A stretch of 64,000 nt of DNA. Origin: Desulfovibrionales bacterium (GTDB lineage: Bacteria > Desulfobacterota > QYQD01). A model generated the notes under the pieces. It saw nothing but the letters and a program-made list of their open reading frames with translations, was not told the DNA's origin and searched no databases. Below, piece by piece: positions 1 through 63,573 of the stretch. The stretch lies in contig JAQURM010000003.1 of NCBI GenBank assembly GCA_028715605.1, positions 98,810-162,809 of the forward strand. Direction: 5' to 3'. The translations under genes and the position numbers were made by a program. Each line of letters opens with the position of its first letter. Position 1 is the first letter of the stretch.

Positions 1-506
1 TGGGAACGGGAAGCGGCCGTTTTGCCGCAGCCTTAGGGGTTGAGTTTGGAATTGACCCTTCAATGATTATGCTTAATCTGGCCAAGGCCAGGGGAGTTAT
101 ATCCGTCCGGGCCATGGGGGAGGCTATTCCTTTCCGGGGTGAGACCCTTGCCGCCGTCTTTATCCTTTTTACATTGTGTTTTGTACAGCGCCCCTTGAAT
201 TTATTTAAAGAATGCGGGCGGATTTTGAGGCCGGGTGGACGGATAGTCATCGCCTGCATTAATAAAAACAGCGCATGGGGCAAGCTCTATGCGGAAAAGA
301 AGCAGGCCGGACACCCCTTATATAGATATGCCACTTTTTATGCTTCTACTGAGGTGGAAGGGTTGCTGATTGCAGCCGGATTCAAAGTGGAAAGATTATA
401 CTCGACCCTTTTGCAGCCACCGGGGCAGGTGGAGTCGATGGAGTATCCGAGAACCGAACTTTTAGACGAGGCAGGTATTACCCTTTTCTTAGGCAAAAAA
501 TGCTGA
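1..506 (+). CDS. Class I SAM-dependent methyltransferase (Methyltransf_11-like), 5'-partial at the window edge
   Basis: The frame is open from base 3. Motif I GTGSGRFAAAL and post-I/III-like motifs (LRPGGRIVIA) are visible; the ORF track shows residues 63-506. Confidence 0.7.
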   Translation, partial: GTGSGRFAAALGVEFGIDPSMIMLNLAKARGVISVRAMGEAIPFRGETLAAVFILFTLCFVQRPLNLFKECGRILRPGGRIVIACINKNSAWGKLYAEKKQAGHPLYRYATFYASTEVEGLLIAAGFKVERLYSTLLQPPGQVESMEYPRTELLDEAGITLFLGKKC

Positions 507-631
507 GCTGCGAATTTGGGGAGATTTGTTATGGCGTGGAAAAGTTGTTGACATCAGGGACAGGATGAATAAGATAGCTGTCAAATTTTGCCATCTTCAT
601 TTTGGCTTACCGGTTTTGGAGGGGATACGAC

Positions 632-1045
632 ATGGGTACGAAATTGAGCTTAAATAGTTTTAAAAATCCATTACTGGTGTTCTCGGTAACCGTCTGGTTT
701 ACAGCCTTTCTCCTGTTTCCGGCTTTAGCTACGGCCGCCCTTTCTGACTCCATTCTGAGCGGTCCGGGGGCATCTCTGGAGCGGGAGACAGAACTGGCTA
801 AGGTCAGGCAGGTCCTGGAGAACAAGATGGCCGTGCAGAAGCTAAAGGATTTTGGCTTGAGTCCGGACGAGGTCTCGGGCAAGTTATCTTCGATGACTGA
901 TGAACAGATTCATCACCTGGCTTCGCTTTCTGAGCGCATCACGGCCGGCGGTGATGGGGTAGGCACGGTCATCGGCGTATTACTCATCATTATTCTGGTC
1001 ATAGTAATTATCAATCTTCTGGATAAAAGGATTATCATAAGATAA
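632..1045 (+). CDS. Small membrane-anchored protein, PA2779-family-like partner of the downstream C39-like peptidase
   Basis: ATG at 632 is preceded by GGAGGGG. There is an N-terminal TM or signal segment and a C-terminal hydrophobic tail. It is adjacent to and co-directional with the C39-like peptidase and TPR genes, as in PA2778/PA2779 loci. Confidence 0.45.
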   Translation: MGTKLSLNSFKNPLLVFSVTVWFTAFLLFPALATAALSDSILSGPGASLERETELAKVRQVLENKMAVQKLKDFGLSPDEVSGKLSSMTDEQIHHLASLSERITAGGDGVGTVIGVLLIIILVIVIINLLDKRIIIR

Positions 1046-1052
1046 CGCCATC

Positions 1053-1661
1053 GTGACCCCGTTCCTTTCCGTGGCTTGGCGCAGGAATATAGGATTGCTT
1101 GCCGTCGTTCTACAGGTTTTTCTGGCGGCCTCCTGCAGCCGCATAACTACGCGTCTCCAGGTTATCGAGGCAATTACACGCGGAGAGGAACGGGGTCACT
1201 ACATCTCTTCCGTTCCTTTTATTTATCAAAAAGATAAGCGTTGCGGGACGGCGGCCCTGGCCGGCGTCCTTCACTATTATGGGGATACAATCAGTGAGGA
1301 GGCAATTGCCGGGGATATTTTTTCTCCGGGGCTGAGGGGGACATTGCTATCCGACCTGGAAAATTTTGCCCGCCGCCGGGGATTCTACACCCATGTCTAT
1401 CCGGGAAGTCTGTCCGACCTCAAAAGGCATATCGAACGTAATGAGCCTGTTATTATCCTTATCGATGAGGGTGTTTCAGTCTATCAACGTCCCCACTACC
1501 TCGTAGCGGTGGGGTATAGTGAAAAACAGAGGCTGGTGATTGTCCATACCGGGACAGAGGCCGATGCCCTCTGGTCTTACGGGCGGCTGGAATCGGCCTG
1601 GGCCCGGATGAATTATCTCTGCCTCCTTATTATGCCTGTTTCCAAGGCCATACAAGAGTAA
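1053..1661 (+). CDS. C39-like (papain-fold) cysteine peptidase family lipoprotein, PA2778-family-like
   Basis: Signal peptide with an LAASC lipobox. Has a CGTAALAGVLHYYG Cys-nucleophile motif and a downstream His in RPHYLVAVGY. Confidence 0.65.
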   Translation: MTPFLSVAWRRNIGLLAVVLQVFLAASCSRITTRLQVIEAITRGEERGHYISSVPFIYQKDKRCGTAALAGVLHYYGDTISEEAIAGDIFSPGLRGTLLSDLENFARRRGFYTHVYPGSLSDLKRHIERNEPVIILIDEGVSVYQRPHYLVAVGYSEKQRLVIVHTGTEADALWSYGRLESAWARMNYLCLLIMPVSKAIQE

Positions 1662-27399: not shown

Positions 27400-28176
27400 A
27401 TGTCAAACGGAACGAGTGCAGCAGTAACCGAGGCCGCCCGCCTCAATGAAATTGGATTTCCGGAGTTTACGGCTAAACTGATTACAGATACCTTCGATGC
27501 CCTGGTAAGCGCCAATATACGTCAAACAGAGGCATATATTGAACTGGTTACCCAGGTATCAAAAACCATCACCCAATTCATCAACGACACCAAAGATGAT
27601 ATAAGCGGGGAGATGATCCTGCAGTTTCTGGCCAAAGTCCTTCCGGCCGCCGAGGAGGAATCCGGGACAAAGGTGAAAGAGGGGGGCACACTTACCGAAC
27701 AGGAAGCCACCACTATCACCAGTGCTGTGGCTGTAGCAGGAGATGAGGCCAATAATCCTGCCATTAGCCAGGGCGACATCGATAAGAGCAAGTATCAGTC
27801 AATCCTGGACGCCGTAGCCCGTCGTATTTCTGCCGACAAATACACCATGCTCAAAGAAATGGTCAAGATGGGCATCCTCCGGCTGGTAGTCGAGAACGGG
27901 GTAATCGAAACCCGGCTCACCTTTACCACGTACGGCTCGACCTTCTATCAAAAGCAAACGAGTAAATACCACCGCGATGCCTTCAGCTTCCGCGCCAAGG
28001 CCAAGACCGGATCTCTTGTCAGTCTGTGGGCCAAGGCCTCGGCATCTACGTCGTACAACAGCGTCAATATAAGCACGTCTAAAGAGACCAACCGCGATAT
28101 ATCCGGCAGCCGGGTACAGATTTACGGCCGGGTGGAGATTAATTTCAAAACCGATTATCAGCCTCTGACGGCGTAA
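27400..28176 (+). CDS. Hypothetical protein, paralog A of an unassigned three-member family (258 aa)
   Basis: RBS GGAGG. N-terminal motif EIGFPEFTAKLITDTFDALV and C-terminal motif GRVEINFKT, shared with the next two ORFs. Confidence 0.6.
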   Translation: MSNGTSAAVTEAARLNEIGFPEFTAKLITDTFDALVSANIRQTEAYIELVTQVSKTITQFINDTKDDISGEMILQFLAKVLPAAEEESGTKVKEGGTLTEQEATTITSAVAVAGDEANNPAISQGDIDKSKYQSILDAVARRISADKYTMLKEMVKMGILRLVVENGVIETRLTFTTYGSTFYQKQTSKYHRDAFSFRAKAKTGSLVSLWAKASASTSYNSVNISTSKETNRDISGSRVQIYGRVEINFKTDYQPLTA

Positions 28177-28186
28177 GGGTATCCCG

Positions 28187-28894
28187 ATGCCAAGCCCCAT
28201 CACTAAACCGGCGGAGGTGGGTTTTGCCGAGTTTACCGGCCAGCTCATCTCTGAAACCTTCCAGGCTGTGGTTCGTTCCCTGGTTCAACAGGAGAAAGAG
28301 GTCAGGGACATGGAGCAAATCGCAGCCCTGGAACCGGCGGATTTCGCCAGGCTCTATATTACCGAAGATATGCTGAGAGCCGAGATTGTTCGCTTGTTTC
28401 CATCTAAGGAGGGCAAAGAGACCGAAAGCTCTATATATCCAGGCTCCCCTTATACCCTACAGGATGAGAAACAGGCCGAGGACCCGCCTGTATTCATACT
28501 TACCGGCTACCGTATAACCGGGAAAGACTTGGAAAAGGATCGCGAAACCGGAAATCTTAAAATAAGTAAAGTTGGTTATGCGCATATTAAAGAGATTATC
28601 CAATCCATGCTGGCCGCCGGCTATAGGGACACCCTTCTCCTCATGTTTCAAAAGGGCATACCCAGGGTTATGATTGATCATGGAAAAATCAATACCAAAC
28701 TTTCATTTTATCTGACTAACGTTATGGAAAAGGGAGAGGAGACCAAATCCAAACTGCCTGCGGCCTTTATATCTAAGCTATCCCTGCCCAGACTGACGGT
28801 CAAGCCGGTGAGTAATCGTACCCCGGAATTTCTAACTCTCAAGATCGATGTTATTGGAGAGGTCGAGATAACATTTAAAACCATAAGCGCTTAA
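28187..28894 (+). CDS. Hypothetical protein, paralog B (235 aa)
   Basis: N-terminal EVGFAEFTGQLISETFQAVV and C-terminal GEVEITFKT. Separated from paralog A by 10 nt. Confidence 0.6.
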   Translation: MPSPITKPAEVGFAEFTGQLISETFQAVVRSLVQQEKEVRDMEQIAALEPADFARLYITEDMLRAEIVRLFPSKEGKETESSIYPGSPYTLQDEKQAEDPPVFILTGYRITGKDLEKDRETGNLKISKVGYAHIKEIIQSMLAAGYRDTLLLMFQKGIPRVMIDHGKINTKLSFYLTNVMEKGEETKSKLPAAFISKLSLPRLTVKPVSNRTPEFLTLKIDVIGEVEITFKTISA

Positions 28895-28923
28895 TCTGAT
28901 CGCTTACAGCTCCTTATAAGATT

Positions 28924-29385
28924 ATGCCATACAAAGATACGAAAATAACTGCAAAGACCAGAGACATTTTTCTGACGGAGACGATATTATCTATCCACCA
29001 TGACGTCCAGAGCGCCATCGATTACATAAGCGAGGTGTCCGGCCGCGAGTCCACAGAATTGGGAAAGAGCCCGGCGGTTATGGGAATTGAAAAAGTAAGG
29101 ATCAGGCTCCCCATCATTTTCGAGACAGAGCAGAAAGAGCATAAGGTAGATGAAAAACCGGCTGTCTTTGACATCAAGACCATTGTAGGTAATCTGGCGC
29201 GGCGGAAGGGTTTTCTCATAGACAAGGGGGCGCCGGGTAAACGCGGCCTATATACCAAGGTAAAGTTAATACACCCAAAAGCGGCGGAGACAGCAGGAGC
29301 CGGAGAAGAAGGACCACCGAAGCAGCAGCTCGTAGGTGAGATAGAGATTATTTTTGCCCCCTTGGGCCGGGAAGAGTCCGAATAG
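28924..29385 (+). CDS. Hypothetical protein, shorter paralog C (153 aa)
   Basis: Shares only the C-terminal strand motif GEIEIIFAP. Confidence 0.5.
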   Translation: MPYKDTKITAKTRDIFLTETILSIHHDVQSAIDYISEVSGRESTELGKSPAVMGIEKVRIRLPIIFETEQKEHKVDEKPAVFDIKTIVGNLARRKGFLIDKGAPGKRGLYTKVKLIHPKAAETAGAGEEGPPKQQLVGEIEIIFAPLGREESE

Positions 29386-29433
29386 GTGTTTCACGGCTCG
29401 ATCTGACCTCTGACGAATCTTACGGAGGGGATT

Positions 29434-29763
29434 ATGCATCTAATAACATCCTTCCGGCACCTGGAAATCAGAAAAATATCTTGTGTTGCTGTTTTGTTTC
29501 TCGCCTTGGTATTTTTTCTCCCATCCACAGTGCTGGCCGGTAAGTTACAAGGGACAGTCATCGGCCGGAAGGGAGACCTTAAAAAATACGTGAGAATCAG
29601 CTTAGTTGGCCGCGAATCCAGGACCACATTTACCAACGGCAGGGGAATTTTTGCCTTAGACGCACCCAATGGAAGATATGGAATGACTATATTTGAGAAA
29701 GGCAACGAACAGACATTTGCAGTTGAAATACCCGGCAGGTGGAAATTTCAGGTTGATTGGTAG
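29434..29763 (+). CDS. Secreted small protein with a CarboxypepD_reg-like beta-sandwich domain
   Basis: Signal peptide (VAVLFLALVFFLPSTVLAG), then GTVIGRKGD...NGRGIFAL..PNGRYGMTI. Confidence 0.55.
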   Translation: MHLITSFRHLEIRKISCVAVLFLALVFFLPSTVLAGKLQGTVIGRKGDLKKYVRISLVGRESRTTFTNGRGIFALDAPNGRYGMTIFEKGNEQTFAVEIPGRWKFQVDW

Positions 29764-29777
29764 GCGAAGGCAAGGCT

Positions 29778-30587
29778 ATGTCACAGGAACAAAATAATAA
29801 GACAAACGACAAAAGAAAAGATGCCTGGGACAAGGCAGATATCGTTATAAAGGGAATCGGCATAGCCGTCATTTCCGGGGCCATTACCCTCTACGGCATC
29901 TGGGCAAACAATAGCCGGGAAAGAGAGGCCGAGATCAACCGGAAATCCCAGCTTTTTGTACAGACTATGAGCAACCGGGAGGCCTCGGAGTCCAACCTGA
30001 GGGCCAAGATGTTTGAACAGCTCATGAATCATTATTTTGAAAAAAAAGACGAAGAGGCCCAACTCCTATTTTTAAAACTTATTGCCCTCAATTTTCAGGA
30101 ATACCTGAACGTCAAGCCCCTCTTTGAACACCTGGCCAGAAAACTGACCTCAAGCCTGCACAGGATGGAACTCCGGAGAGTAGCCAAGGATACGATCGGC
30201 CGCCAGATTGCGGAACTGGAAGGAAGCGGGGGCGAGGTATGGGAGGAGCCGGGTTGGCTTGAGAAAGGTAAGGTTACTCCCGCCGGACCGCTGCAATTGG
30301 AATTATTAGGGGTAAGCGAAGACCGTATTCGCATAAAAACATTGCCGGAAGATGAAGACGGATTCGAGGTGACATACTTCGATATGCCTTATGTGGACAA
30401 TAGTACTATAAATGCCATGAGATATTCTGTAGTGCTCGCAGGAATAGACTTAAAAGGGGAAAGGGCTAAGATAAAGATAGTCATTTTCCCGGAGAATTAC
30501 CTGAGTCCGAGAGACAGGCCGCGCATGGACTGCCTGATTACCGATCTTCTTAAAAACCAGGAGGCGCCTGCCCCTGTAAAGAAGTAA
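29778..30587 (+). CDS. Single-pass membrane protein of unknown function (holin/anchor-like N-terminus plus a roughly 220-aa soluble domain)
   Basis: ATG at 29778, after the previous stop. TM helix IVIKGIGIAVISGAITLYGIW. Confidence 0.5.
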   Translation: MSQEQNNKTNDKRKDAWDKADIVIKGIGIAVISGAITLYGIWANNSREREAEINRKSQLFVQTMSNREASESNLRAKMFEQLMNHYFEKKDEEAQLLFLKLIALNFQEYLNVKPLFEHLARKLTSSLHRMELRRVAKDTIGRQIAELEGSGGEVWEEPGWLEKGKVTPAGPLQLELLGVSEDRIRIKTLPEDEDGFEVTYFDMPYVDNSTINAMRYSVVLAGIDLKGERAKIKIVIFPENYLSPRDRPRMDCLITDLLKNQEAPAPVKK

Positions 30588-30596
30588 TGGAGACTG

Positions 30597-30680
30597 TTAA
30601 GCAGTTCAAGCAGTTCAAGCAGCTCAAACAGATCAAACAGTTTAAACAGCTTAAACGGTTTAAGCTGCTGTATTAAATTC
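30597..30680. repeat. Degenerate 9-bp tandem repeat (8-9 units, TTCAAGCAG / NTCAAACAG)
   Basis: gttaagcag ttcaagcag ttcaagcag ctcaaacag atcaaacag tttaaacag cttaaacgg tttaagctg. A related array lies at 50505-50565. Confidence 0.8.
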
Positions 30681-30697
30681 CGTCAAAAGGTGGCTAT

Positions 30698-31417
30698 ATG
30701 TTTCTCAAAAGAGGGAGCCAGGGCCGCCTGGTAAAAAACCTACAGGAAAGACTTAATGAACTGGGTTATGAAGCCGGGGAGGTTGACGGCTTTTTCGGGC
30801 CGAATACGGAAAAGGCGGTTTTAAGATTCCAGCAGGATAAGAAGATAGATGCCGATGGTATCGTAGGCAATCAGACCTGGCAGGCCCTGTTTGCAGAGGC
30901 CATACCCGAAACAGCCACTTCTCTGGATACACCGCCTTCTGAGGCATTATGCTTCGATATCTTCGGAGACTTCAGATTGGCCGGCTGGTCTGAACATAAC
31001 CTGGTGCGCTGCGACCTGTCGGAATGGAAAGATGCCTTCCGCCACGTCTATTACAAGACCGCGACAGAGACCATAAGGATATTTGAACATACAGACTGGT
31101 TCGGGTTCCGGACCCACCGCCTTATAGTTCCGCAATTGCGGCTGGCCTTTAAAAACCTGGCCGGGCGCGGCTTATCAAATGATCTCAAGACCTTTGACGG
31201 GTGTTTTAACCCCAGACTGAAACGGGGCGGGTCCACCTGGTCCGTCCACTCCTGGGCCATAGCCATAGATGTAAATGCCGCCTGGAATGCCTTTGGGCAA
31301 AGAGACTTCGAAATGTCGAAAGAGTTCGCCGCCTGCTTTGAGGACGTTGGCTTCATTTGGGGCGGAAGATGGTCAAAACCGGACGCCATGCACTTCCAGT
31401 ACTGTATGGACAGGTAG
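30698..31417 (+). CDS. Endolysin-like cell-wall hydrolase: PG_binding_1 domain plus LAS/M15-type metallopeptidase
   Basis: LQERLNELGY..GEVDGFFGPNTEKAV..FQ PG-binding repeat. C-terminal HSWAIAID (HxxxxxxD) with terminal DAMHFQY His. Confidence 0.8.
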   Translation: MFLKRGSQGRLVKNLQERLNELGYEAGEVDGFFGPNTEKAVLRFQQDKKIDADGIVGNQTWQALFAEAIPETATSLDTPPSEALCFDIFGDFRLAGWSEHNLVRCDLSEWKDAFRHVYYKTATETIRIFEHTDWFGFRTHRLIVPQLRLAFKNLAGRGLSNDLKTFDGCFNPRLKRGGSTWSVHSWAIAIDVNAAWNAFGQRDFEMSKEFAACFEDVGFIWGGRWSKPDAMHFQYCMDR

Positions 31418-31529
31418 GGTGATTACGGCAGGTATAAAGAACGGCCAGGCGCAGGTGTAAAATGACGGGGGAAAGCGGAGCGCAGATTTTGAAAGGCCCA
31501 AGAATGAATACTCTCCAGGAGGTGAAAAC

Positions 31530-32051
31530 ATGACAGAATTTGTCGTTAATCCACACCGGTGTGATCCTTATAAGCAATTCAAATTCCGTATCAAGTGGGA
31601 TGGGAAATATATTGCCGGAGTCTCAAAGGTAAGCGCCCTTAAGCGGATAACCGAGGTCGTGACCCACCGCGAGGGTGGGAGTCCTAATACCGTCCATAAA
31701 TCGCCGGCACAAACCGTATACGAGCCCATTATTCTCGGCAGAGGCCGGACACACGACCCGGAATTCGAGAAGTGGGCCAATAAAGTCTGGAACCCCGGGG
31801 CAGGATCAGGGGCGGAAGTCTCTCTAAAGGACTTCCGGAAGGATATAATTATAGAGCTTTACAATGAGGCCGGGCAGCTTGCTATGGCCTTCACGGTATA
31901 TCGTTGCTGGCCTTCTGAATACGTGGCCTTGAGTGAGCTCAATGCCAACGACAGCTCCGTGGCGTTTGAGTCCATAACGCTTCAGCACGAAGGCTGGGAG
32001 CGTGATTACGAAGTTACCGAGCCTATGGAACCGTCATTCACCGAACCATGA
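31530..32051 (+). CDS. Contractile-tail tube protein homolog (T4 gp19 / TIGR02241 'phage tail region protein' family)
   Basis: RBS AGGAGGTG. QFKFRIKWDG..AGVSKVSAL..ITEVVTHREGG ... WPSEYVALSELNANDSSVAFESITLQHEGWER matches the N- and C-terminal signature strands of eCIS/phage tube proteins. Confidence 0.8.
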   Translation: MTEFVVNPHRCDPYKQFKFRIKWDGKYIAGVSKVSALKRITEVVTHREGGSPNTVHKSPAQTVYEPIILGRGRTHDPEFEKWANKVWNPGAGSGAEVSLKDFRKDIIIELYNEAGQLAMAFTVYRCWPSEYVALSELNANDSSVAFESITLQHEGWERDYEVTEPMEPSFTEP

Positions 32052-32064
32052 AGGGGGTAAAAAA

Positions 32065-34401
32065 ATGAATGAAAAAGGTAAAAAAAAGAATGAGTTGACG
32101 CTGACCGTCAAGGTGCGTCTGGAACAGGCTAAAGGCAAGGAGCTTCCGGAGGTCGTGGTTTACGCCTTTGACCAGACCGGCCAGTTTCTTACCGCTGCCA
32201 AACTACCAAAGGGCGAGCAGGCCGAGGTCAGGCTGGATCTACCCATAGGGTTGCGAGGTACAACCGTACGAGCCATTCTCGGTCCACCCCTGGCTGCGGA
32301 AGACGAAGATGTGCCATCCTGGATGGCCATACTGATGCGCAGGGGCAAGGAACAAAAGGAAGTACCATCGTCAGCCGTCCTCGTACAGAGGGGGGCATAC
32401 GAGAAGCGCGCCCGTATGCATACGGAGCACGAGGTGCTCAGTGTAGCGGTTTTTCCCCATGACTGGACAAAGTGGCTTCGATGTTTATGTACGGTGCAGG
32501 GTAGAGTAGTCAAACGCATGGCCCTGCCGGACGGCACAACCAAAGACCTGGGTGTCTGTCACGCCTGCGTCAAGATCTATGAGGTGGACAAGTTTCCTAA
32601 ATTGATTGCGCGTCTGCCGGAGCGTGACCTTTTCCGGCTGAGGGATGATCTGTGGCGCCGCTTCAGGCAGTGGCCTCCCGAAGAATTGCCGTTTGAATAC
32701 AAACCCAGGGTTTGGCCGTCTCCGCCGCCCCCGCCACCCGAACGTACCCAAATGTCCGGCATCTCCTCTCTCGAAGCTGTCTCAGCCGTGGCCATTAACC
32801 CCCAACCTGAACCTCCGATTGAGGCCCTTGGAAAGGGAACAGTAATTACCCCCATAAATAGTCAGATACAGACGGAGCTTGAACCAATCCTCCTCGCCGT
32901 ATCCGCCACTGAACTGCGGTCGGCCCTGGTTGCCAAGGCAGACATACTGGTCCGTTTCGCCTGTCTCTGGGAATGGCTTTACTCCTATTTCCACACGGAC
33001 CTGATCAAGTGTGCCTGCACGGATGAACAGGGTCGCTTTCAGACGACCGTCTCGTATCCCTGTGGCGGTGATAAGCCCGATCTCTACTTCAAGGTGATGC
33101 AGTGTATCGATGGCGCTTTGCACACCTTATACGACCCGGGGGTGGCATGTCACACCTACTGGAACTACGAATGCGGGAGTGAGGTAACCCTTGAGGTCAC
33201 CGATCCGGCGGCCAGGGTCTGCGTGCCGACGGATCCTGTAGAAGTGCCGGCCGGCGTCTCTCTCTGGGTGATGCCTTATGCCGTGGGCGGCATCAGTCTG
33301 GATCGGATCAAGCCTAACTGGCAAAAGAACCTAACATGGCATGTGGCTGATCCGGATCCCACTAAGCGTGGTCTCACCGATTACGGAAGCATCGTAGATG
33401 CCCCGTTCGGCGGCTGGCTCGGTTTCCGTCATGGTTACGCCAGCAGCATTCCCACCCCTGCCCTGTATTACTACCGCTGGCGCTACAAAAAAGAAGGCGA
33501 AGCCGAGTGGCACGATTTCAGCGAACCTGTGGTGCGTCACTACGTCAAGGAAATGCCGGGAAAGCTGCCTACCTTCCCGGTCTGCACCCTGGGGCCAAAG
33601 GGGGTGGACGGCAAGAACCTGTACCGTTTCAAACCGCATGATCCATCCGAGTGTGGCGATTTTATCCCAGGTGGCACCAATTACTGGCCCACCGATGACT
33701 GGTTCGGCGACATCTACACCGGCTTTCTGAATTCACCCGGCCTGCCCGGGGGCGTGGACACCTCGGCCGGTAAGTACAAGATAAAGCTGGAGGTCTATGA
33801 CCAGGCAGGCAACCGTGTCACTTCCGGGCCGGGGACCTTTCAGTTTATTGTGCCTACGGGCGTGGCAGATGATGGCGTGACCATCGAGACCCGGCTGGCT
33901 GATGCCGCCGAAATCGAGAGCGATGGTTTTGTCTTTTATCTGCACATAGACAACCGGAAGTGCACGGCTATCATTGACGCGCCGACTATTGGCGGCGTTT
34001 CGGCAGGTGACGTGTGCGGATTCCTCCGCTACACGCCGGGCGATTCCACCCCGGTGCACATCGCCTTCCACGCCGTGCATACGGCCAATTTTGCCACATT
34101 CTCTTTTTCGGTCACACGCGGCGCCACTCCGGTGAGCAACGTCGGTGGCGAGGTGGCGGCCGGCTCTGTAGCGGATAAGACCACGGCTCCGTCGGACCAC
34201 AGTTACACGGGCGACGGCAACGGCAACTTCCAGCATGATTTTCCAACCGGCCGCCTGCTGGGGCCGTGTGCGGAGGCCGCCTTTGCCGAGGTTCTGAACG
34301 TGGATGCCAAGGCCACCAATGGCTGGCGGCGGCTTGACGAATATGATGCGGACGCGGTCCGCGCCTTCGCCCTAGCCCCGGAGACAGGCGATGAGACATA
34401 A
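32065..34401 (+). CDS. Large Cys-rich protein (778 aa): Lys-rich N-terminus, beta-sandwich-like domains, PPPPPP linker
   Basis: ATG at 32065 behind AAGGGGG. No signal peptide. PSPPPPPPE linker. Many Cys residues (CACTDEQGRFQ..CGGDKPDLYF..C..C). No catalytic motif I recognise. Confidence 0.65.
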   Translation: MNEKGKKKNELTLTVKVRLEQAKGKELPEVVVYAFDQTGQFLTAAKLPKGEQAEVRLDLPIGLRGTTVRAILGPPLAAEDEDVPSWMAILMRRGKEQKEVPSSAVLVQRGAYEKRARMHTEHEVLSVAVFPHDWTKWLRCLCTVQGRVVKRMALPDGTTKDLGVCHACVKIYEVDKFPKLIARLPERDLFRLRDDLWRRFRQWPPEELPFEYKPRVWPSPPPPPPERTQMSGISSLEAVSAVAINPQPEPPIEALGKGTVITPINSQIQTELEPILLAVSATELRSALVAKADILVRFACLWEWLYSYFHTDLIKCACTDEQGRFQTTVSYPCGGDKPDLYFKVMQCIDGALHTLYDPGVACHTYWNYECGSEVTLEVTDPAARVCVPTDPVEVPAGVSLWVMPYAVGGISLDRIKPNWQKNLTWHVADPDPTKRGLTDYGSIVDAPFGGWLGFRHGYASSIPTPALYYYRWRYKKEGEAEWHDFSEPVVRHYVKEMPGKLPTFPVCTLGPKGVDGKNLYRFKPHDPSECGDFIPGGTNYWPTDDWFGDIYTGFLNSPGLPGGVDTSAGKYKIKLEVYDQAGNRVTSGPGTFQFIVPTGVADDGVTIETRLADAAEIESDGFVFYLHIDNRKCTAIIDAPTIGGVSAGDVCGFLRYTPGDSTPVHIAFHAVHTANFATFSFSVTRGATPVSNVGGEVAAGSVADKTTAPSDHSYTGDGNGNFQHDFPTGRLLGPCAEAAFAEVLNVDAKATNGWRRLDEYDADAVRAFALAPETGDET

Positions 34402-34439
34402 TAACCGGAGGATTTCAAATAAGAAGGAGGTAAAAAGCT

Positions 34440-35633
34440 ATGCATAAGCCGAGGTTTTTAAGAAGTCTGGTGTTCATTGGATTAATGGTACTGGCAATGG
34501 CAGGCAGTGTTTTTGCCCAGCACGACGTATACCTGGAAACCCCAAATACTGTCCCTTCATATTGTCAGGAAACAAATATCTGGTGTGGTGCGGCCACTAC
34601 ACAGATGATCCTGGAAGGATATCCGGGCGGAACCGAACATCCATTTACGCAAACGCATATCTGGAACAGGATTCAGGCCCACAGGGATGACCTGGCGGTA
34701 AACTGGGCCACAGACCCTGATGGGCTGAGGGATACACTTATGGAGCTTGGCGGGGACCCCGGGGTGAGTTGGAATATCTATGCCAACTCCAATGCCCAGT
34801 CGTTGATGTACTCTGTCAGCTATTGGATGACCAGACGACAGTTCCCGACGGCCGTATTGGTCTATGGCTTTCAGCATTGGGTCATGATTGACGGCTTCAC
34901 AACAGATGTGAATCCTACTACAAATGCTACAATAAATCTCCAGTCGATCGAGATTGTTGATCCTGGAAACTTTCCCTGTCCGACGGCCTCTTCCGGCGGC
35001 GTGCGATCCTTAATGACCGGAGCCAACTGGTACGCCAATTACTGGTACACGCCGGGCAATATCGCGGCCAGTAAGTGGAACGGCAACTATGTCGCCGTAA
35101 TTGAACCGCCCGCCAAAGAGGGTGTAGCCAAGGCGCCCAGGCAGGTGGAAGAAGGACGTATAATCTCTGAGGGCGCCGCCAAAGAGCATGCCATGAGATG
35201 GTTTAAGGAACTTCGCCTGGAAAAACGGGCGCCCTATGCCGTACTGCGGCAGACCAAGGGACTTCAGCCGCTCCTGGTGAATCCAAAACGCAAGGGGTAT
35301 TTCCTGGTCCCCCTGGGCTATAGTGAAGGGGAACTAAGCCAGGGAGCGATCCTTGTAAATGCGTACGATGGGAGTTTTCAGGAGGTGGGTGTCTTTCAAA
35401 GACCTCTCAAGTACCTCTCCAGGGATCAGGCCATACGGATTGCCCGCAACTACCTGTGCGCCTGCAAGGATAAGCGGCTAAGAGTTCAGGCCCAGCTCAT
35501 GTTTCAACCTTCGGAGCAGACCCAAAGCCGGTTTATGCCCTTATGGGAGGTTATGGTGGACAGAGTCACTCTCTATATCACCCAGGAGGGCAAGGTATTT
35601 GAGAAGCTGACTCCGCTTCCACTGGGAGATTAA
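34440..35633 (+). CDS. Secreted papain-fold (C39-like) cysteine peptidase domain protein
   Basis: RBS GAAGGAGG. Sec signal peptide. NIWCGAATTQMILEGY Cys motif, comparable to CGTAALAGVLHYYG of the 1053 gene, and a downstream His in FQHWVMIDGF. Confidence 0.6.
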   Translation: MHKPRFLRSLVFIGLMVLAMAGSVFAQHDVYLETPNTVPSYCQETNIWCGAATTQMILEGYPGGTEHPFTQTHIWNRIQAHRDDLAVNWATDPDGLRDTLMELGGDPGVSWNIYANSNAQSLMYSVSYWMTRRQFPTAVLVYGFQHWVMIDGFTTDVNPTTNATINLQSIEIVDPGNFPCPTASSGGVRSLMTGANWYANYWYTPGNIAASKWNGNYVAVIEPPAKEGVAKAPRQVEEGRIISEGAAKEHAMRWFKELRLEKRAPYAVLRQTKGLQPLLVNPKRKGYFLVPLGYSEGELSQGAILVNAYDGSFQEVGVFQRPLKYLSRDQAIRIARNYLCACKDKRLRVQAQLMFQPSEQTQSRFMPLWEVMVDRVTLYITQEGKVFEKLTPLPLGD

Positions 35634-35734
35634 AAAAACTATGATTATGGGGTTGCCGGAAGCGCTTGAAGATATTGTTATGCAGTGCCGCGAGACCGGC
35701 AACCCCTGCAATGGCCTGGATATGGTGAATAAAA

Positions 35735-37456
35735 ATGTCCGACAAGCCTAAAAAGCTTTCCGAAATAAGGTTTAAACCGGCGAGCCGGGTCTTCCCCTCT
35801 CCTTTAGATTGGCGGGACCAGTTCGTTTATTTTCTCCTGGTGGACCGGTTTAACAGCGGGAAAGGTGATATCCCTCCATTCGTACCTGGCTCAACGTCCA
35901 CCGGCAGAAATGATGAAGAAGGCGAAAAATGGCAGGGCGGGACACTGAAAGGTATTACTGAGAGACTCGACTATATAAAAGGCCTGGGCTGTACGGCCGT
36001 ATGGCTCAGCCCTATATTCAAAAACCGCACAGAGCTTAACACCTACCATGGCTACGGCATCCAGAATTTTCTCGATATTGACCCGCGCCTTGGGTCGGTT
36101 AAAGACTTACAGACCCTGGTAAAAAAAGCCCACAAGATGGGGATGTATGTAATTCTCGATATAGTCTTGAACCATACCGGCGACAACTGGGCCTATCCGG
36201 GAGGCTACCGCTACGAATACTGTGGGGGGCAGAGATTTCCCTTTGGTTTCTGGCGGGAAGTTACCCCTGGTTCAGGGATCGAGTGGCCGGATGATGCGGT
36301 CTGGCCGGTAGAATTCCAGAATCCCGAGTGGTACAGGCGAAAGGGCGAGATCCGAAACTGGGACACATTCCCGGAGGCGAGGGACGGCGACTTTTGTACT
36401 CTGAAAGAGCTTGATACCTCAAGCCGTGAAGTACTGCGAGCCCTCATCGACATACATAAGCACTGGATTGCCGTCACCGATGTGGATGGCTACCGACTCG
36501 ATGCGGTAAAGCACCTGGAAGAGTCAAGCACTGCTCTATTTTGCGCGGCCATAAGGGAATATGCCCAGTACATCGGCAAAAAGAATTTCCTATTCTTTGG
36601 AGAGATCATCGGAGACGACCGTTTTATCGACCAGTATATCGGCAGAAATGCCCGCATCCCGGGCACTAACGAACGTTTTCCTTCCCTGGACGCCGCCCTT
36701 GACTTTCCCTTGTGGGGGATACTGGAAGGGGTAATAAAGGGATTTACAAATCCGGCCGAACTCAGGAAAAGATATGAAGGATTCCGGGAATTATATAGCG
36801 ACCACGGTCGGGCCGGCGAATATTTTGTGACTTTTATTGATAACCACGACCAGATTGGCCGCTCGCCAAGGGCCAGATTTCTCCATAACGATCCCCTCCA
36901 GAGACAGGCTGTTCTGGCCATAGGTTACCTGCTTACAAGCATCGGTATCCCCTGCCTCTATTATGGGACAGAGCAGGGGTTCGACGGCGGAGGTGACCAT
37001 GATAAGTACATACGTGAATGTATGTTCGGCGGCCGCTGGGGGGCCTTCAATACTACAGGGCATCATTTCTTTAACCCGGATAACCCCATCTATAAAGATA
37101 TATCCCGTATCGCAGGGATAAGAGGGGAAGAGCCTGCTCTGCGTTATGGAAGACAATACTTCCGGGAGATATCAGGAAACGGCATCGATTTTGGCTATCC
37201 TATCGACGGCCGTTCTACCCTGGCCTATTCCCGTATTCTCGACAGCACCGAGATACTCGTGACCATGAATCTGGATATGAAGCCAAGGAGTGACTTTGTA
37301 ACCGTAGATAGCAGCCTTTCTCCCATTGGTAAAGAAATGGTTAACCTTCTGGACGCGCGGTCAAGAGTAAAGATAAGCGAGGTAAGCGGACGGCATATAG
37401 TCCGCACCGACTTGCAGCCTCATGAAATAGCAATATTTAAAATCATTGTTCCATAA
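35735..37456 (+). CDS. GH13 alpha-amylase-family glycoside hydrolase (cytoplasmic)
   Basis: YHGYGIQNF..DP..G....L...HKMGMYVILDIVLNHTG, GYRLDAVKH and FIDNHD conserved regions. Confidence 0.9.
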   Translation: MSDKPKKLSEIRFKPASRVFPSPLDWRDQFVYFLLVDRFNSGKGDIPPFVPGSTSTGRNDEEGEKWQGGTLKGITERLDYIKGLGCTAVWLSPIFKNRTELNTYHGYGIQNFLDIDPRLGSVKDLQTLVKKAHKMGMYVILDIVLNHTGDNWAYPGGYRYEYCGGQRFPFGFWREVTPGSGIEWPDDAVWPVEFQNPEWYRRKGEIRNWDTFPEARDGDFCTLKELDTSSREVLRALIDIHKHWIAVTDVDGYRLDAVKHLEESSTALFCAAIREYAQYIGKKNFLFFGEIIGDDRFIDQYIGRNARIPGTNERFPSLDAALDFPLWGILEGVIKGFTNPAELRKRYEGFRELYSDHGRAGEYFVTFIDNHDQIGRSPRARFLHNDPLQRQAVLAIGYLLTSIGIPCLYYGTEQGFDGGGDHDKYIRECMFGGRWGAFNTTGHHFFNPDNPIYKDISRIAGIRGEEPALRYGRQYFREISGNGIDFGYPIDGRSTLAYSRILDSTEILVTMNLDMKPRSDFVTVDSSLSPIGKEMVNLLDARSRVKISEVSGRHIVRTDLQPHEIAIFKIIVP

Positions 37457-50604: not shown

Positions 50605-52464
50605 CTACTGTAAAATTCCAACCTGCGGTGGGCACGCCTCGTCGTGCTCCCTCTCTCTAATCGCACATTTTTTTTCAAAGCCGGCGTATAGAGATTTCAG
50701 CCGGGCTTTCTGCCGCTCCACAGTCGGCGGGATGGATGCCAGGTTTTCTCCCGGATAGGGCTGCTTTCGCCCAATATCAAGGCAAAAATCCATACTTTTT
50801 TCGAGATGGTCCTTGAATTCCCGCAGGTTTTTGATTTCTTTGGGCGTGTGTTGACTGCGAGCCACCTGTTTTTCGAAGTAATCCACGTACAGCACGATTT
50901 CGTTGGCAAACATGTGCGGCCGCTGAGATGAAACCAGGGACGGGCTCCGCCCGTAGATGTGATCCACCATCTCTTGCAAGGTGTAAATTCCGTTGAACCA
51001 GGCGAGGTTAGGGCCGGGGCATATACACTGGGGCGCATCTTTGGCCTCGGCGATTCCCAGGGCGATGAGGGCTCCATTTCCCAGATGATCGCAGATACAG
51101 GCCCTTTCCATGATCTCCTCACGCAGCCTTTCTTTCTCAGCCTCCGGAAGCCCCATCTGGTTTATCTCTTTCAGCTTATTTTTCTGGAATTGTCTGGAGG
51201 CAAGACATATAGGTTTTTTAGTAAATTCGGTGTTGGATATCAGATAACCCTTGGCACAGGGAGAGCCCGGCCTGCCCTCCGCCGCCATCTTGCGCAGCCA
51301 CAGTTCTGACCCGGTGTTGCGCACATTGTTGAAAGGAATTCCGAGAGGGGAGGCGCCGCTAATGTAGAGATCAGTTTCTCCGGCCTGCCTTAATAACTCA
51401 CGGGTAGGGGCATCCACACAGGTGGCTTCAGGGACCAGGAGAAACGGGGTGCCCCATCCGGTCAGGTCCATACCGAAGTCTTCCTGCAGCCTGCGCACCT
51501 CTCCGTGGTTGCCGATACCACCCTGAACAGTGATGAGTGGGCCGGTTTCCAGACCCGGTTCCGGATAGGTCCAGCCCATATCCCGGTAGTGCCTGAGTAT
51601 CAGCGGTTTAAATTCTGCGGCCAGTTGCCCGCGTTTTTCCTTGAATTCCTGGAGAATGCCGGGGAGTAAAATTCCGTTGGTGGGAAAGGCATGCCCTCCG
51701 CAATTAAGTCCTGATTCAACGCGGAATTCATGCACCTCCAATCCCTTTTTCGCCAGGAACTTCCCCTGGATGAGTGCGGAGCGGAAGTCGCTCACCTTGA
51801 GGATTATCTTCTTTTTGACCTCACCCCGTTCATCCCGGTAAAAATCCCGGAACCGGGTCATGTAGGTGTAAAGGCTCTGGTTAATCCCGGCGGAAAATAC
51901 GATGCCGGACCTGAGGCTGCTATCGGCATAGCCTTTAAGGGCTGTTTTGGCGTCGCTGAATTCATCATCGCGGGGGTGGCCGTTTCTGTCAAAGGTGTTG
52001 TCCAGTTTGACCATAATATTGACGTCAATAGAGCCGGCGTGCATTCTACGGGTCAGATCCCTTTCCAGCGCATCTCGTTCCGGCCCGGCGTGCATATCCA
52101 ACAGCCTGCTGTAATCCTTTTTCAGGGGGCTTTCATCCGGTAACAGCTCAAAATACTTCCTCTTGTCGTTGTCTGCGAAGAAGGGTTGTTGCCGGATGTC
52201 CTCCATTCTAAGCCGAACGATTTCCCGAACGACTTCGAGGTAAGCAGTGATCCTTTTTGCCCTGCCATGCTCTTCGTGCCTTGGGATTTCGACGTATGGT
52301 AAATTGTATTTTTCGCTGTAGTATTTGCGGATTTGTTCGAGCAAAATATCATCTACCAATGAAATAACGGAAGAGATACCCAGCGGAGCCACACGGATGG
52401 GCGTGTCAACAGAGTGCCCGGTACCCATGACCGGGATGTGAAAGGTGTGGTAATAGTCTATCAT
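50605..52464 (-). CDS. Large conserved protein with an FMN-type TIM-barrel-like core (IMPDH/NPD-like GGIGN..G motif) and a C-terminal Cys cluster. Function unknown
   Basis: ATG at 52464 (MIDYYHTF), RBS AAAGGGG. LNCGGHAF, VQGGIGNHGEVRRLQEDFGMDLTGWGTPFLL, CICDH..CICPG. Confidence 0.55.
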   Translation of the reverse strand: MIDYYHTFHIPVMGTGHSVDTPIRVAPLGISSVISLVDDILLEQIRKYYSEKYNLPYVEIPRHEEHGRAKRITAYLEVVREIVRLRMEDIRQQPFFADNDKRKYFELLPDESPLKKDYSRLLDMHAGPERDALERDLTRRMHAGSIDVNIMVKLDNTFDRNGHPRDDEFSDAKTALKGYADSSLRSGIVFSAGINQSLYTYMTRFRDFYRDERGEVKKKIILKVSDFRSALIQGKFLAKKGLEVHEFRVESGLNCGGHAFPTNGILLPGILQEFKEKRGQLAAEFKPLILRHYRDMGWTYPEPGLETGPLITVQGGIGNHGEVRRLQEDFGMDLTGWGTPFLLVPEATCVDAPTRELLRQAGETDLYISGASPLGIPFNNVRNTGSELWLRKMAAEGRPGSPCAKGYLISNTEFTKKPICLASRQFQKNKLKEINQMGLPEAEKERLREEIMERACICDHLGNGALIALGIAEAKDAPQCICPGPNLAWFNGIYTLQEMVDHIYGRSPSLVSSQRPHMFANEIVLYVDYFEKQVARSQHTPKEIKNLREFKDHLEKSMDFCLDIGRKQPYPGENLASIPPTVERQKARLKSLYAGFEKKCAIREREHDEACPPQVGILQ

Positions 52465-52613
52465 GTACGCCCCTTTTTGTTCGGTCGAACCGATACAATG
52501 CCTTCGAAAAGGCGCAATACGCAATATGTTACAGCAACCTGCGGTAAGATTCCATAAATCTGTTAAAAAGTCAATGGAGTTCAGGAAGATGTCCCGGGCA
52601 GGCCTCCGATAAT

Positions 52614-60990: not shown

Positions 60991-63573
60991 CTATCTGTTC
61001 AGTTCCTTCTCTTCTTTTCCCGCCAGCGGTTTTTTCCTCTGTCCCCTTGTACTAACCTCTCTCGACGCTAAGTAAATGCTGCTAGTCCGTCTTCCAAACC
61101 ATCCTAAGTCAGCGGGATGATCATTAAATCCTTGAACATCATAGGCCACAATTGTTTTTAACTCGATATGAGAGCCTATGTGGTTTCTTATTTCATCAGA
61201 TGCCTTGATTAGAGATGCTTTCGTAGCCGATACATTTTCTTCTGGTTCACAATATCGCTCAAACGATAGCATGGCAATGTCTGGTTGAATTAAATTTATC
61301 TTTTTGATGAACTTATCTACTTCCCCAGGTTTGTTTATAAAAAGAGAAACGCTGAGTTTTACTTCAACTGCATAAAACTTACCGTCAAGAACGCAAAAAA
61401 TATCCATTTCATTTTTTGTCTCAGCATCATCGGACTTCTCAAATAGATCGACCTCTGGTAGATACCAAAAACTTCCTCTAATAAACCGATCATGCAAGAA
61501 TCCCAGAGTCCACAGTACGGGTAAGCCAGTCTGTTTAATTAGTGAGCGATAAACAAAATCATTAAGTTGATATGTCCATCCAAGATCAATAGGCGCTAAG
61601 TATTCCCTGCTACAAATTTCACAGCTATTCTTAATTTTCATGCCATCGAAGCTGCGAGAGTTCGTATGCCCACAATATTGACATCTCCACTGGTGCACTT
61701 GATAGAAGACATTAGTTCTTATTAGGTATTCGAGTGTATCGGTAAGATTGTTCATCATAAAATTTGAAACCTTACCGATATTACTTACATTCAGCTTTTT
61801 CATTAATTTTTCTCTAGTTGGCCGATCATTTGGGAGAAACCCGTTTAGTTTTTCACGGTCATATACGAGATATTTTACCGAATCTTCTTTTCCTGCTCTT
61901 AATACTGCTCTCCAATACTTATTGGTCAGAATTTCATAGGCGCTGGAGAGACTGCCAACCATTGAGATAACACCTCGTAGATTTTGTCCCTTATCAGATA
62001 TCGATAGATCTTGGTAAGAATTCTTCACTATCGAAGCTCGTAAATCATCCGGTGGATACTTGAAGAAATCTAGTACTAGGTGTTGGAAAAATATCTCATC
62101 ATCAGGTAAAGACAAGTTATACAAATACTCTTTATTAATAGATTGGTCACCGATGGGAAAGTCTTCTGTTGTTGGTAGAAGTGCGAGTCGGTGACCGATG
62201 GTAACTTTTCCTAAGTTTTTAGTAAAAGCTCTTACGATTTTACGTCTTCGCGGCAACACCCAGTTGTCAACAACGTTAGAATATCTGGACAAGTTATTGT
62301 GTCTCTGGATATCAAGTTCAACGACCCATTGACCCTTGGCGATGCCCTTGTAACGAGGAGGTATATAGGTGAAATGCGCGGGCTCTTCAGCTGGTAACGT
62401 ATTAGTATCTTCATTTAGTTTGAATGTGGATGTGTCGGTTGATCTTCTAAAGTAACCTGCCTTTAATTTCTTTTTCTCCGGTAATGCAGGTACGTTGAAA
62501 TTTTTTCCAACAAATATCGAGTTGTAGGTGTGCTTACTCAGCTTATCTTGGATTGAGCGCAGCTCTTCTTCGCTATGGCTGTAGCTTCGAATGGAAACCT
62601 TAGCGGGACCGTTTTCTTGTCCCAGGAAATTGTTCTGGTTCAGATATTGACCCAACTGACTTATCAAGTTTTCATCATTGAAAAATGTAGCTTCTATGAT
62701 AAATGCGCCCGGTGTTGTGGCGTAACTAGGAGTGAAATGGCGAGCGTTCCAGAAATGAACTCGATCAAGAAGTGTTTTTCCTATGAAAAGGTTAAAGCTA
62801 TGCGCCCATTCATATGGTTCAACCCGAGGTATAGCTTCGCTATGTGCCGACGCAAGTCTAGCAATTGGCAATGCCTTTCGGTTGCTAAGCGCAGAAAGTA
62901 TATCTGCAATCGAACCGCATCTCTCGGTACCTGCGATGATACGGTCGGATAGATCAGGAGGAACTAGGCAAAGCGTTCGAAAGAGATCAGGGATGGCATG
63001 AGTGACTATGTGAACCTTAAATGCCGTACCAAAGTTATCACTTAACAGGCGATGTGTGGATTCGTTACCGTATTGGGTGATGACGGTAATTTCACTCTCT
63101 GGTTTTTGCCTCATAAAGGACGGATACTGCGCATGGGGGCTTTGGATCGTTGTCATCGATGATATAGGTCTAAAGTAGTGTTGCCAGTCATGAATAAACG
63201 CGCGCCAGTGAAGATCGTCTAAATCATGTTTCCTAATCTCATGCCGTAGAAACGCGATCGGAGAGCACACCCTATCGATTTTTTCGACCAGGTCTTTTTC
63301 CAGTTCAACGTATGTACAAACGAAATCCGGATCGAAAAATTCCAACCACGATTCATAAGCTGGATCGAGGAACTCCATTGAACCAGAAGGAACGATTAGC
63401 GTGTAAGCGCCGGCCCAGCGTGTGTAGGACTCATAGAATAACGCGTCCAATAACATATGATTAACAGATAATTCGTCGTAGGGGACTAGATACGCGATCT
63501 TTATGGGCCGGTTGCTGGTCTTGACCTCAATCGTTTTCCCAAGACTTTGGGGGCGGTCTAAATTCATATTCAT
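60991..63573 (-). CDS. Large AT-rich gene (860 aa) of unknown function with a C-terminal C4 zinc ribbon and a PD-(D/E)xK-like nuclease motif
   Basis: By eye about 36-40% GC against about 53% for the flanks. CQYCGHTN...CEICSREY. EMDIFCVLDGKFYAVEVKLS (D..D/E-V-K). No Walker A, no RT YxDD. Confidence 0.7.
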   Translation of the reverse strand: MNMNLDRPQSLGKTIEVKTSNRPIKIAYLVPYDELSVNHMLLDALFYESYTRWAGAYTLIVPSGSMEFLDPAYESWLEFFDPDFVCTYVELEKDLVEKIDRVCSPIAFLRHEIRKHDLDDLHWRAFIHDWQHYFRPISSMTTIQSPHAQYPSFMRQKPESEITVITQYGNESTHRLLSDNFGTAFKVHIVTHAIPDLFRTLCLVPPDLSDRIIAGTERCGSIADILSALSNRKALPIARLASAHSEAIPRVEPYEWAHSFNLFIGKTLLDRVHFWNARHFTPSYATTPGAFIIEATFFNDENLISQLGQYLNQNNFLGQENGPAKVSIRSYSHSEEELRSIQDKLSKHTYNSIFVGKNFNVPALPEKKKLKAGYFRRSTDTSTFKLNEDTNTLPAEEPAHFTYIPPRYKGIAKGQWVVELDIQRHNNLSRYSNVVDNWVLPRRRKIVRAFTKNLGKVTIGHRLALLPTTEDFPIGDQSINKEYLYNLSLPDDEIFFQHLVLDFFKYPPDDLRASIVKNSYQDLSISDKGQNLRGVISMVGSLSSAYEILTNKYWRAVLRAGKEDSVKYLVYDREKLNGFLPNDRPTREKLMKKLNVSNIGKVSNFMMNNLTDTLEYLIRTNVFYQVHQWRCQYCGHTNSRSFDGMKIKNSCEICSREYLAPIDLGWTYQLNDFVYRSLIKQTGLPVLWTLGFLHDRFIRGSFWYLPEVDLFEKSDDAETKNEMDIFCVLDGKFYAVEVKLSVSLFINKPGEVDKFIKKINLIQPDIAMLSFERYCEPEENVSATKASLIKASDEIRNHIGSHIELKTIVAYDVQGFNDHPADLGWFGRRTSSIYLASREVSTRGQRKKPLAGKEEKELNR

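Follow-up and report, generated by a model that had tools for sequence, protein, structure and literature searches.

A tube gene from a sheath-less clade of contractile-injection tubes beside an unrelated three-gene cassette in a Desulfovibrionales genome

The stretch of DNA analysed here, which we call the window, comprises 64,000 nucleotides from a Desulfovibrionales bacterium (contig JAQURM010000003.1, positions 98,810 to 162,809 of the forward strand). Between 27.4 and 39.3 kb every gene lies on the + strand and the gaps are short. In this run we find a gene for a protein of the type that forms the inner tube of contractile injection systems (CIS), preceded by a cassette of three genes (A, B and C), two putative envelope proteins and a cell-wall hydrolase, and followed by genes for a 778-aa and a 397-aa protein (Table 1). 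Other loci compared with the window are designated by L numbers. We report that the tube belongs to a clade whose members are not accompanied by a sheath, and that the A-B-C cassette is an unrelated, widely transferred unit without annotation in the libraries searched.

A tube clade without sheath genes, scattered across unrelated contexts

The product of the open reading frame (ORF) at 31530-32051(+) matched PF06841 over profile positions 2-134 of 134 (E 6.6e-41; 139.7 bits, cutoff 28.2) and TIGR02241 with 138.8 bits (cutoff 62.4). Its residues 13-156 also matched the solved CIS tubes of Anabaena (All3324, 7b5h; E 4.7e-13) and AlgoCIS (7adz; E 7.3e-12), and the protein matched a tail tube PHROG. 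The gene has a strong ribosome-binding site (RBS), AGGAGGTGAAAACATG. Judged by its sequence, this is a genuine gp19/TIGR02241 tube protein, as a preliminary description of this DNA had proposed, with the thresholds of both hidden Markov models (HMMs) far exceeded. Membership of this family (gp19/Hcp-like) would predict assembly into hexameric rings. The same description had seen here an orphan tube in the absence of a prophage, an R-type tailocin or a canonical extracellular CIS (eCIS), which also stands: no CIS or phage structural gene was detected in the 64 kb by Pfam or tblastn. Pfam scans of the flanks were negative for sheath, baseplate, Pvc16, AAA ATPase, capsid, terminase and integrase, and near the tube neither Pfam nor PHROGs gave a capsid, terminase, integrase or other tail gene. 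For tblastn of the whole window, which found no CIS gene, we used the complete eCIS gene set of a related cluster, L102 (sheath, Pvc16_N, AAA, eCIS_core, CIS_tube and neighbouring proteins).

Scanning metagenomes for relatives of the tube returned more than 555, of which we analysed the best 80 in a neighbour-joining tree of about 173 residues. The 18 closest relatives (73-99% identity) formed one clade, with a bootstrap value of 448/500. Five diagnostic substitutions (N16Q, V73R, V128P, Q147E and N153H) mark the split between this clade, which we call solo, and the rest. By tblastn with the L102 proteins, none of the 18 solo loci, the full window included, carried a CIS gene, while outside the clade a sheath match was present in 62 of 66 loci and some CIS gene in 64 of 66. 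Neighbour clustering and Pfam place the relatives of 65-73% identity in canonical eCIS clusters, immediately behind the sheath gene; in L102 the order is Phage_sheath_1/1C, tube, an unassigned gene, Pvc16_N, AAA ATPase, eCIS_core and CIS_tube. The window tube thus resembles the inner tubes of eCIS and thylakoid-anchored CIS (Afp1/Pvc1 type, 7adz and 7b5h), matching the domain at full length above curated thresholds and sharing about 70% full-length identity with sheath-linked tubes. Unlike those, the 18 solo members have no sheath, baseplate, terminator or ATPase gene nearby and carry the five diagnostic residues. In the viral-contig collection we found a single tube relative (L168), on a 2.3-kb contig that also had a sheath match.

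The window's own lineage supplies five of the 18 solo sequences, and the remainder are found in at least seven further contexts, so that solo tubes occupy at least eight unrelated contexts. Their neighbours include a DJ-1/PfpI gene with a methyltransferase, transporters of the major facilitator superfamily (MFS), an M29 peptidase, an SH3 protein, MsrAB with a beta-lactamase-family gene, and a small gene resembling those for outer-membrane proteins (OMPs). All solo genes are intact, with an aligned domain of 170-173 aa and zero internal stops. The ratio of nonsynonymous to synonymous divergence (dN/dS) was 0.08-0.14 in the clade where dS was unsaturated, and 0.12 for the window tube against each of three close relatives (L005, L171 and L089). 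Within the window's lineage the dS of the tube equals that of the flanking genes, which marks the tube as resident rather than recently imported. According to these results, the solo clade is monophyletic, intact, under purifying selection and scattered across unrelated contexts.

One could argue that such a tube has lost its function and is left over from a degraded eCIS or prophage, given that no partner genes are present, that some relatives have its segment and others lack it, and that neighbouring genes are being deleted in relatives. This explanation conflicts with the selection data. The dN/dS of 0.12 in the lineage is reached at the same dS as in the flanking housekeeping genes, ORFs stay intact throughout a clade saturated at synonymous sites, the clade has fixed five diagnostic substitutions, and L089 has kept its tube though both neighbours were deleted. 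We consider a relic very unlikely.

Four genes of the solo clade (L097, L101, L152 and L164) combine a Sec-type signal peptide with a complete PF06841 domain (Table 1). Signals were recognised by a charged n-region, a hydrophobic core (Kyte-Doolittle screen) and a c-region. A further orphan locus, L110, which branches next to the CIS-linked clade, has two tandem tube copies, both with a Sec-type signal peptide and a linker of 30-45 aa between the signal and a complete tube domain. No CIS gene lies near any of these signal-bearing genes. Sheath-linked tubes, on the other hand, all begin with M-[A/V]-x-F-[S/T]-V-N and have no N-terminal extension. Because export is incompatible with cytoplasmic assembly into a sheath, at least part of the tube radiation works outside a contractile machine. 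We know of no described exported tail-tube protein, and the CIS tubes known to us lack Sec-type signal peptides; our search of the literature for orphan, stand-alone or exported CIS tubes returned nothing relevant.

Table 1. Coordinates of the features in the window and of signal-bearing tube genes in related loci. For window proteins, signal peptides and transmembrane (TM) segments were read from the translations by eye.
Feature	Locus	Position	Strand	Remarks
Protein A	window	27400-28176	+	258 aa, first gene of the A-B-C cassette
Protein B	window	28187-28894	+	235 aa, directly downstream of A
Protein C	window	28924-29385	+	153 aa, third cassette gene, short 'C2' type
Small protein with signal-like hydrophobic N-terminus	window	29434-29763	+	109 aa, topology by eye
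Protein with one apparent TM segment	window	29757-30587	+	276 aa, topology by eye
PG_binding_1 + Peptidase_M15_4 cell-wall hydrolase	window	30698-31417	+	239 aa, no signal peptide
Solo tube protein, gp19/Afp1/Pvc1 type	window	31530-32051	+	173 aa, no signal peptide
778-aa protein	window	32065-34401	+	ATG at 32065; no signal peptide
397-aa protein	window	34440-35633	+	N-terminal Sec-type signal peptide by eye
Presence/absence segment (tube, 778-aa and 397-aa genes)	window	31417-35740		M15 stop codon to amylase start codon
Signal-bearing tube	L097	951-1649		
Signal-bearing tube	L101	523-1122		
Signal-bearing tube	L152	about 494-1096		
Signal-bearing tube	L164	9914-10519		
Tandem tube, first copy	L110	500-1219		Sec-type signal peptide
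Tandem tube, second copy	L110	1317-1991		Sec-type signal peptide

The A-B-C cassette

Genes A, B and C had been described as three tandem paralogs, which our alignments support for A and B and not for C. A and B aligned by BLASTP (E 2e-10) and by hhalign (probability 99.8%, E 3e-30); on this evidence they are true paralogs, B being divergent. For C against A and B, BLASTP gave E values of 0.2 and 12, and hhalign aligned the final 10-16 residues alone, with a probability below 7%. C resembles the other two only in a terminal GEIEIxF strand motif, and its paralogy to them is not demonstrable from these comparisons.

The search for homologs of A yielded 624 sequences, with 60-70% identity to proteins from Clostridia, Bathyarchaeia and Desulfobacterota (12 sequences were found for B). 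In Acetivibrio cellulolyticus, Bathyarchaeota and Desulfolithobacter, whose A proteins are 60-70% identical to that of the window, A is followed by B and then by another small gene, and PF06841 is absent from the 10 kb around A. Between Bathyarchaeia and bacteria the identity of A is about 65%. A profile scan with one genome per species gave 80 A loci. The bacterial ones belong to Thermodesulfobacteriota, Bacillota, Bacteroidota, Chlorobiota, Actinomycetota, Acidobacteriota, Nitrospirota, Verrucomicrobiota, Myxococcota, Chloroflexota and Gammaproteobacteria (Kangiella, Alteromonas and Pleionea), and the archaeal ones to Bathyarchaeia, Methanocella and Halorubrum. Cultured carriers include Kangiella spp., Acetivibrio cellulolyticus, Desulfolithobacter dissulfuricans, Geomobilimonas luticola and a Halorubrum strain.

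Using tblastn with all window proteins, we found A and B adjacent nearly everywhere in the 80 loci, and a B-type gene followed A in 64 of the 70 loci where A was called. Neighbour clustering gave A, B and the third gene as the only recurrent neighbours. The third gene comes in two types, C1 (about 237 aa, 35 loci) and C2 (about 152 aa, 26-27 loci), which have some 43 N-terminal columns in common (hhalign probability 63%). C1 (for instance L013:2027-2776) lacks the GEIEIxF terminal motif and gives a sub-threshold match to DUF4332, a helix-hairpin-helix-like family (E 0.001). Selection on A is very strong, with dN/dS values of 0.02-0.09. According to these results, A-B-C is a self-contained, independent and very widely transferred three-gene cassette.

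With a profile built from A and B, exhaustive searching by HMMER gave 1,489 clusters at 50% identity (E up to 0.001), and the best 150 were almost all stand-alone proteins of 225-300 aa. Ten longer members of the A family showed no Pfam domain above threshold and no fusion domains. Distant A-like domains (25-28% identity) also occur within longer proteins on two plasmids: pBPJTT of Burkholderia pyrrocinia (L172, 5743-7197), where hypothetical genes lie beside an adenylate/guanylate cyclase and a patatin-like phospholipase, and a Tolypothrix plasmid (L173, 5737-6858), where they lie beside an S8 peptidase and a peptidoglycan-binding protein.

Regarding possible partners, an iterated HMM search of the 80 A loci gave only C1 peptidases in a few cases, one TM276-like protein in L020 and one 397-aa relative in L049, counts too few to call an association. 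Peptidase genes flank the cassette at L020:7333-9757, L025:2-283, L026 (on both sides), L004:7675-9933 and L049:6523-7698. Among them are papain-family C1 peptidases, an M4 peptidase and the 397-aa relative, from several Desulfobacterota and one Nitrospirota genome, again too few for an association. An Acidimicrobiia metagenome-assembled genome (MAG), L058, has the sole A-B-C locus with a CIS match (Pvc16-like) nearby, which is probably a coincidence.

To characterise protein A we searched Pfam, NCBIfam, PHROG, PADLOC and PDB profiles, with no match, and modelled it with AlphaFold2 (AF2) from 37 homologs. The predicted local distance difference test (pLDDT) score was 60; only residues 30-160 or so, a helical N-terminal domain, are modelled with confidence (means of 10-residue blocks, 59-86), and the score falls below 50 in the conserved beta region of the beta-rich C-terminal part. 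Foldseek against the PDB gave as best match a COMMD-like octamer (E 0.48, TM-score about 0.1), a weak test given the low-confidence beta region. For the loose resemblance to sheath and tube-terminator proteins that had been seen in the C-terminal strand of the paralogs, the model of A gave no significant fold match, within the limits set by that beta region. A, B, C and the 778-aa protein had no sheath, gp15/gp3 or Pvc16 similarity in Pfam, NCBIfam or PHROG. Because the terminal strands are conserved and the beta region is poorly determined in the model, we infer that A and B might form an obligate hetero-oligomer or polymer. A-B-C may be an undescribed bacterial and archaeal system, in which a strand-exchanged A/B oligomer or polymer would carry an interchangeable third subunit.

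The preliminary description had considered that the three cassette proteins might, with the hydrolase, the secreted proteins, the tube and the 778-aa protein, make up a single tube-based structure for the surface or for secretion, either reduced or novel. The co-oriented genes with their short gaps would fit such a structure, as would the similar C-terminal beta-strand motif of A, B and C, and a monomer model of A that is poor in the beta region is what strand-exchanging polymers could be expected to give. Comparative genomics conflicts with this model and largely refutes it. Among 80 A-containing and 81 tube-containing loci, cassette and tube co-occur in the window's own lineage only; of the A loci, a single one, the near-identical relative L005, holds the tube, 778-aa and 397-aa genes together. 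Two close relatives, L006 and L007, lack exactly 31417-35740, and with it these three genes, at 92-98% nucleotide identity in gene A. Added to this, homologs of the 778-aa protein occur alone elsewhere, its predicted fold is a generic beta-sandwich, and A lacks a sheath or terminator fold match. A single structure built from all these genes is hardly tenable.

The 778-aa protein, the other neighbours and structural variants

The 778-aa gene starts 13 nt after the stop codon of the tube. Its ORF is present as had been described, with 17 Cys, a PPPPPP linker and no signal peptide. An identical protein is recorded in a Desulfovibrionales MAG (P0121), and 291 homologs were found, all without Pfam domains. 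These homologs stand alone in Peptococcaceae, Bacteroidales and Chloroflexota (L085, L086, L087 and L169), and in another proteobacterial MAG one lies beside Amidase_3 and a C1 peptidase; no tube was found in any of these loci. A possible place for the gene on the contig of L102, at the far end of an eCIS cluster, was considered and rejected; the two loci obtained, L169 and L170, which do not include the 84-kb contig of P0132, showed no CIS genes. For neither A nor the 778-aa protein were relatives found on viral contigs or in phage records, and alignments of the two gave no match in a profile search against the PDB.

The AF2 model of the 778-aa protein (pLDDT 86.8) consists of N-terminal beta-sandwiches, a helical bundle and a large C-terminal region rich in beta-sandwiches, with the poly-Pro linker disordered (residues 214-262). 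Foldseek returned generic beta-sandwiches only and no sheath, baseplate, spike or terminator fold, and the idea of a sheath, tube or terminator fold in this protein is not borne out. A CxC...CxxC cluster (C140, C142, C165 and C168; window 32482-32568), of which C140, C142 and C165 are invariant or nearly so across the family, suggests a metal site in a protein devoid of an export signal. We also compared the beta-sandwiches with multidomain surface proteins built from immunoglobulin (Ig) or macroglobulin (MG) domains, such as pilins, adhesins and the MG domains of alpha-2-macroglobulin. The 778-aa protein differs from them in having no signal peptide or anchor, in its CxC...CxxC cluster, in whole-chain TM-scores of about 0.1 and in belonging to no Pfam family.

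The tight coupling of the two genes bears on a further explanation, in which the solo tube is a trans-acting accessory subunit for a CIS encoded elsewhere in the genome, with the 778-aa protein perhaps as its cargo. The 13-nt spacing, the purifying selection on the tube and its roughly 70% full-length identity to sheath-linked tubes would all agree with such a role. There is also a parallel in the orphan or minor Hcp genes of type VI secretion systems (T6SS), which likewise encode a tube fold away from the main cluster and are kept under selection. Hcp is a different sequence family from gp19/TIGR02241 tubes and the parallel is an analogy; orphan hcp genes usually lie beside vgrG or effector genes, whereas solo tubes have no recurrent partner. 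A precedent for minor Hcp paralogs with specialised roles is reported (PMC13213661). On the other side, the remaining solo contexts hold metabolic and transport genes with no recurrent effector-like partner, 778-aa homologs are found without a tube, and the L089 tube was kept after loss of the 778-aa gene. Neither the window nor any solo locus has a CIS gene, and four clade members carry Sec-type signals incompatible with cytoplasmic CIS assembly. We therefore regard an accessory subunit as unlikely, while giving it some weight.

The hydrolase, with PG_binding_1 (E 2.7e-20) and Peptidase_M15_4 (E 8.9e-15) domains and matches to endolysin PHROGs, has the endolysin-like architecture attributed to it previously. 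It shares this architecture with phage endolysins of the PG_binding_1 + M15 type; unlike them, it has no phage context and keeps its synteny in relatives whether or not they have the tube. Support for a holin at the locus was weak (a PHROG match at E 0.006 only). The 109-aa and 276-aa genes (29434-30587) are confined, among the 80 A loci, to the window's lineage, and in place of this pair L020 carries, upstream of A, a TM protein of 25% identity. Two annotations given before for secreted proteins fell short of their cutoffs. The CarboxypepD_reg-like match of 29434-29763 reached 23.3 bits (cutoff 32.3). For the C39-like peptidase call, Peptidase_C39_2 reached 16.2 bits in the 397-aa protein (threshold 24; E 0.016) over 46 residues only, with no NCBIfam, PHROG, PADLOC or PDB sequence match. 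The relative of the 397-aa protein in L049, 35% identical, lies upstream of A.

Among close relatives of the window, with 88-98% nucleotide identity in the flanking genes, L005 and L088 share its arrangement. L171 retains the tube and the 778-aa gene and lacks 34384-35695 with the 397-aa gene. L089 lacks 32075-34159 and 34405-35471, so that the tube is intact, the 778-aa gene mostly lost and the 397-aa gene truncated. The M15 gene is internally deleted by about 500 nt in L005 and L007 (window 30733-31229). No direct or inverted repeats flank the 31417-35740 indel; a candidate repeat, D1, was rejected as the RBS shared by the three genes. The window's genes show dN/dS values of 0.02-0.37, that is, purifying selection throughout. 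Between the window and L171 (10001-12277) the 778-aa gene has a dS of 1.85, compared with 0.2-0.4 for its neighbours and 0.19 for the adjacent tube. Other over-diverged alleles are those of B in L007 (dS 1.2) and of the 109-aa gene in L005 and L007 (dS 0.76-0.98). Some alleles are therefore far older than their flanks, a pattern that indicates a mosaic region in which recombination has replaced alleles.

The genes flanking the locus are housekeeping genes according to Pfam (DinB, EngA, YchF, TatA, a histidine kinase, TrmFO/GidA, GYD, an oxidoreductase of the Old Yellow Enzyme (OYE) type, the trp operon, MutL, MiaA, ZnuA, GlgB and MalQ), and downstream of the 397-aa gene come an alpha-amylase, a papain-family peptidase and more genes. 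Ten locus proteins gave zero matches to PADLOC defence models at E up to 0.1, no Rfam family was above threshold in the window, and promoter and terminator scans performed no better than chance. Elsewhere in the window, the ORFs at 50605-52524(-), 639 aa, and 60991-63573(-), 860 aa, had no Pfam match at E up to 1e-5, the latter falling in the part with the lowest GC content (0.416 at 60-62 kb).

A free-standing tube among independent modules

Taken as a whole, the explanation that we favour, and consider fairly probable, is that the tube is a free-standing member of the sheath-less clade and that its neighbours are unrelated, independently inherited modules. The region would be an accessory stretch prone to recombination and bounded by housekeeping genes (TrmFO/GYD on the upstream side, amylase and the trp operon on the downstream side), in which the A-B-C cassette, a lineage-specific envelope trio (the signal-like small protein, the TM protein and the M15 hydrolase), the solo tube, the 778-aa gene and the 397-aa gene have probably come to lie side by side on one strand. 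The solo tube would descend from the main inner-tube gene of an eCIS, the one directly after the sheath, in a clade that appears now never to stand beside a sheath, baseplate, terminator or ATPase gene. Its product is probably a free-standing exapted paralog, a putative former of rings or tubes with no contractile machine encoded alongside, cytoplasmic here and exported in some relatives. The proposal of a domesticated phage module is thus supported for the tube gene alone, with its sheath-less clade and purifying selection.

Several points weigh against the free-standing tube. The CIS search covered 64 kb, so a complete CIS may lie elsewhere in the genome and the solo tube could feed it. Ring formation is predicted from family membership, and the exported relatives say nothing direct about the window tube, which itself has no signal peptide. 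The clade comes from a neighbour-joining tree of short sequences and the best 80 of the more than 555 relatives; five of its 18 members are of the window's lineage, and several of the other contigs are short. Finally, the tube and the 778-aa gene, 13 nt apart, occur together in four members of the lineage, and a local functional pairing of the two is possible.

Contractile injection surveys define loci by multi-gene clusters, and isolated tube genes go uncounted in them. Our results show that eCIS-type tubes include at least one coherent clade that is maintained by selection outside any cluster, some of its members fused to export signals. This suggests that the tube fold has been reused for something besides injection, and a concrete gene set for testing such reuse is now defined. 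A false lead is also removed, in that the genes around the tube do not belong to a tube machine, and A-B-C is singled out as an independent, very widely transferred unit. That there are two separate novelties here, a tube clade exapted from CIS and, in A-B-C, an undescribed bacterial and archaeal system, is a view we put forward tentatively and with more doubt than confidence. Sheath-less tubes may form rings or tubules by themselves, and Sec may carry them to the periplasm or the cell surface in some lineages. If this is true, it would mean a tube protein operating with no contractile machine whatever.

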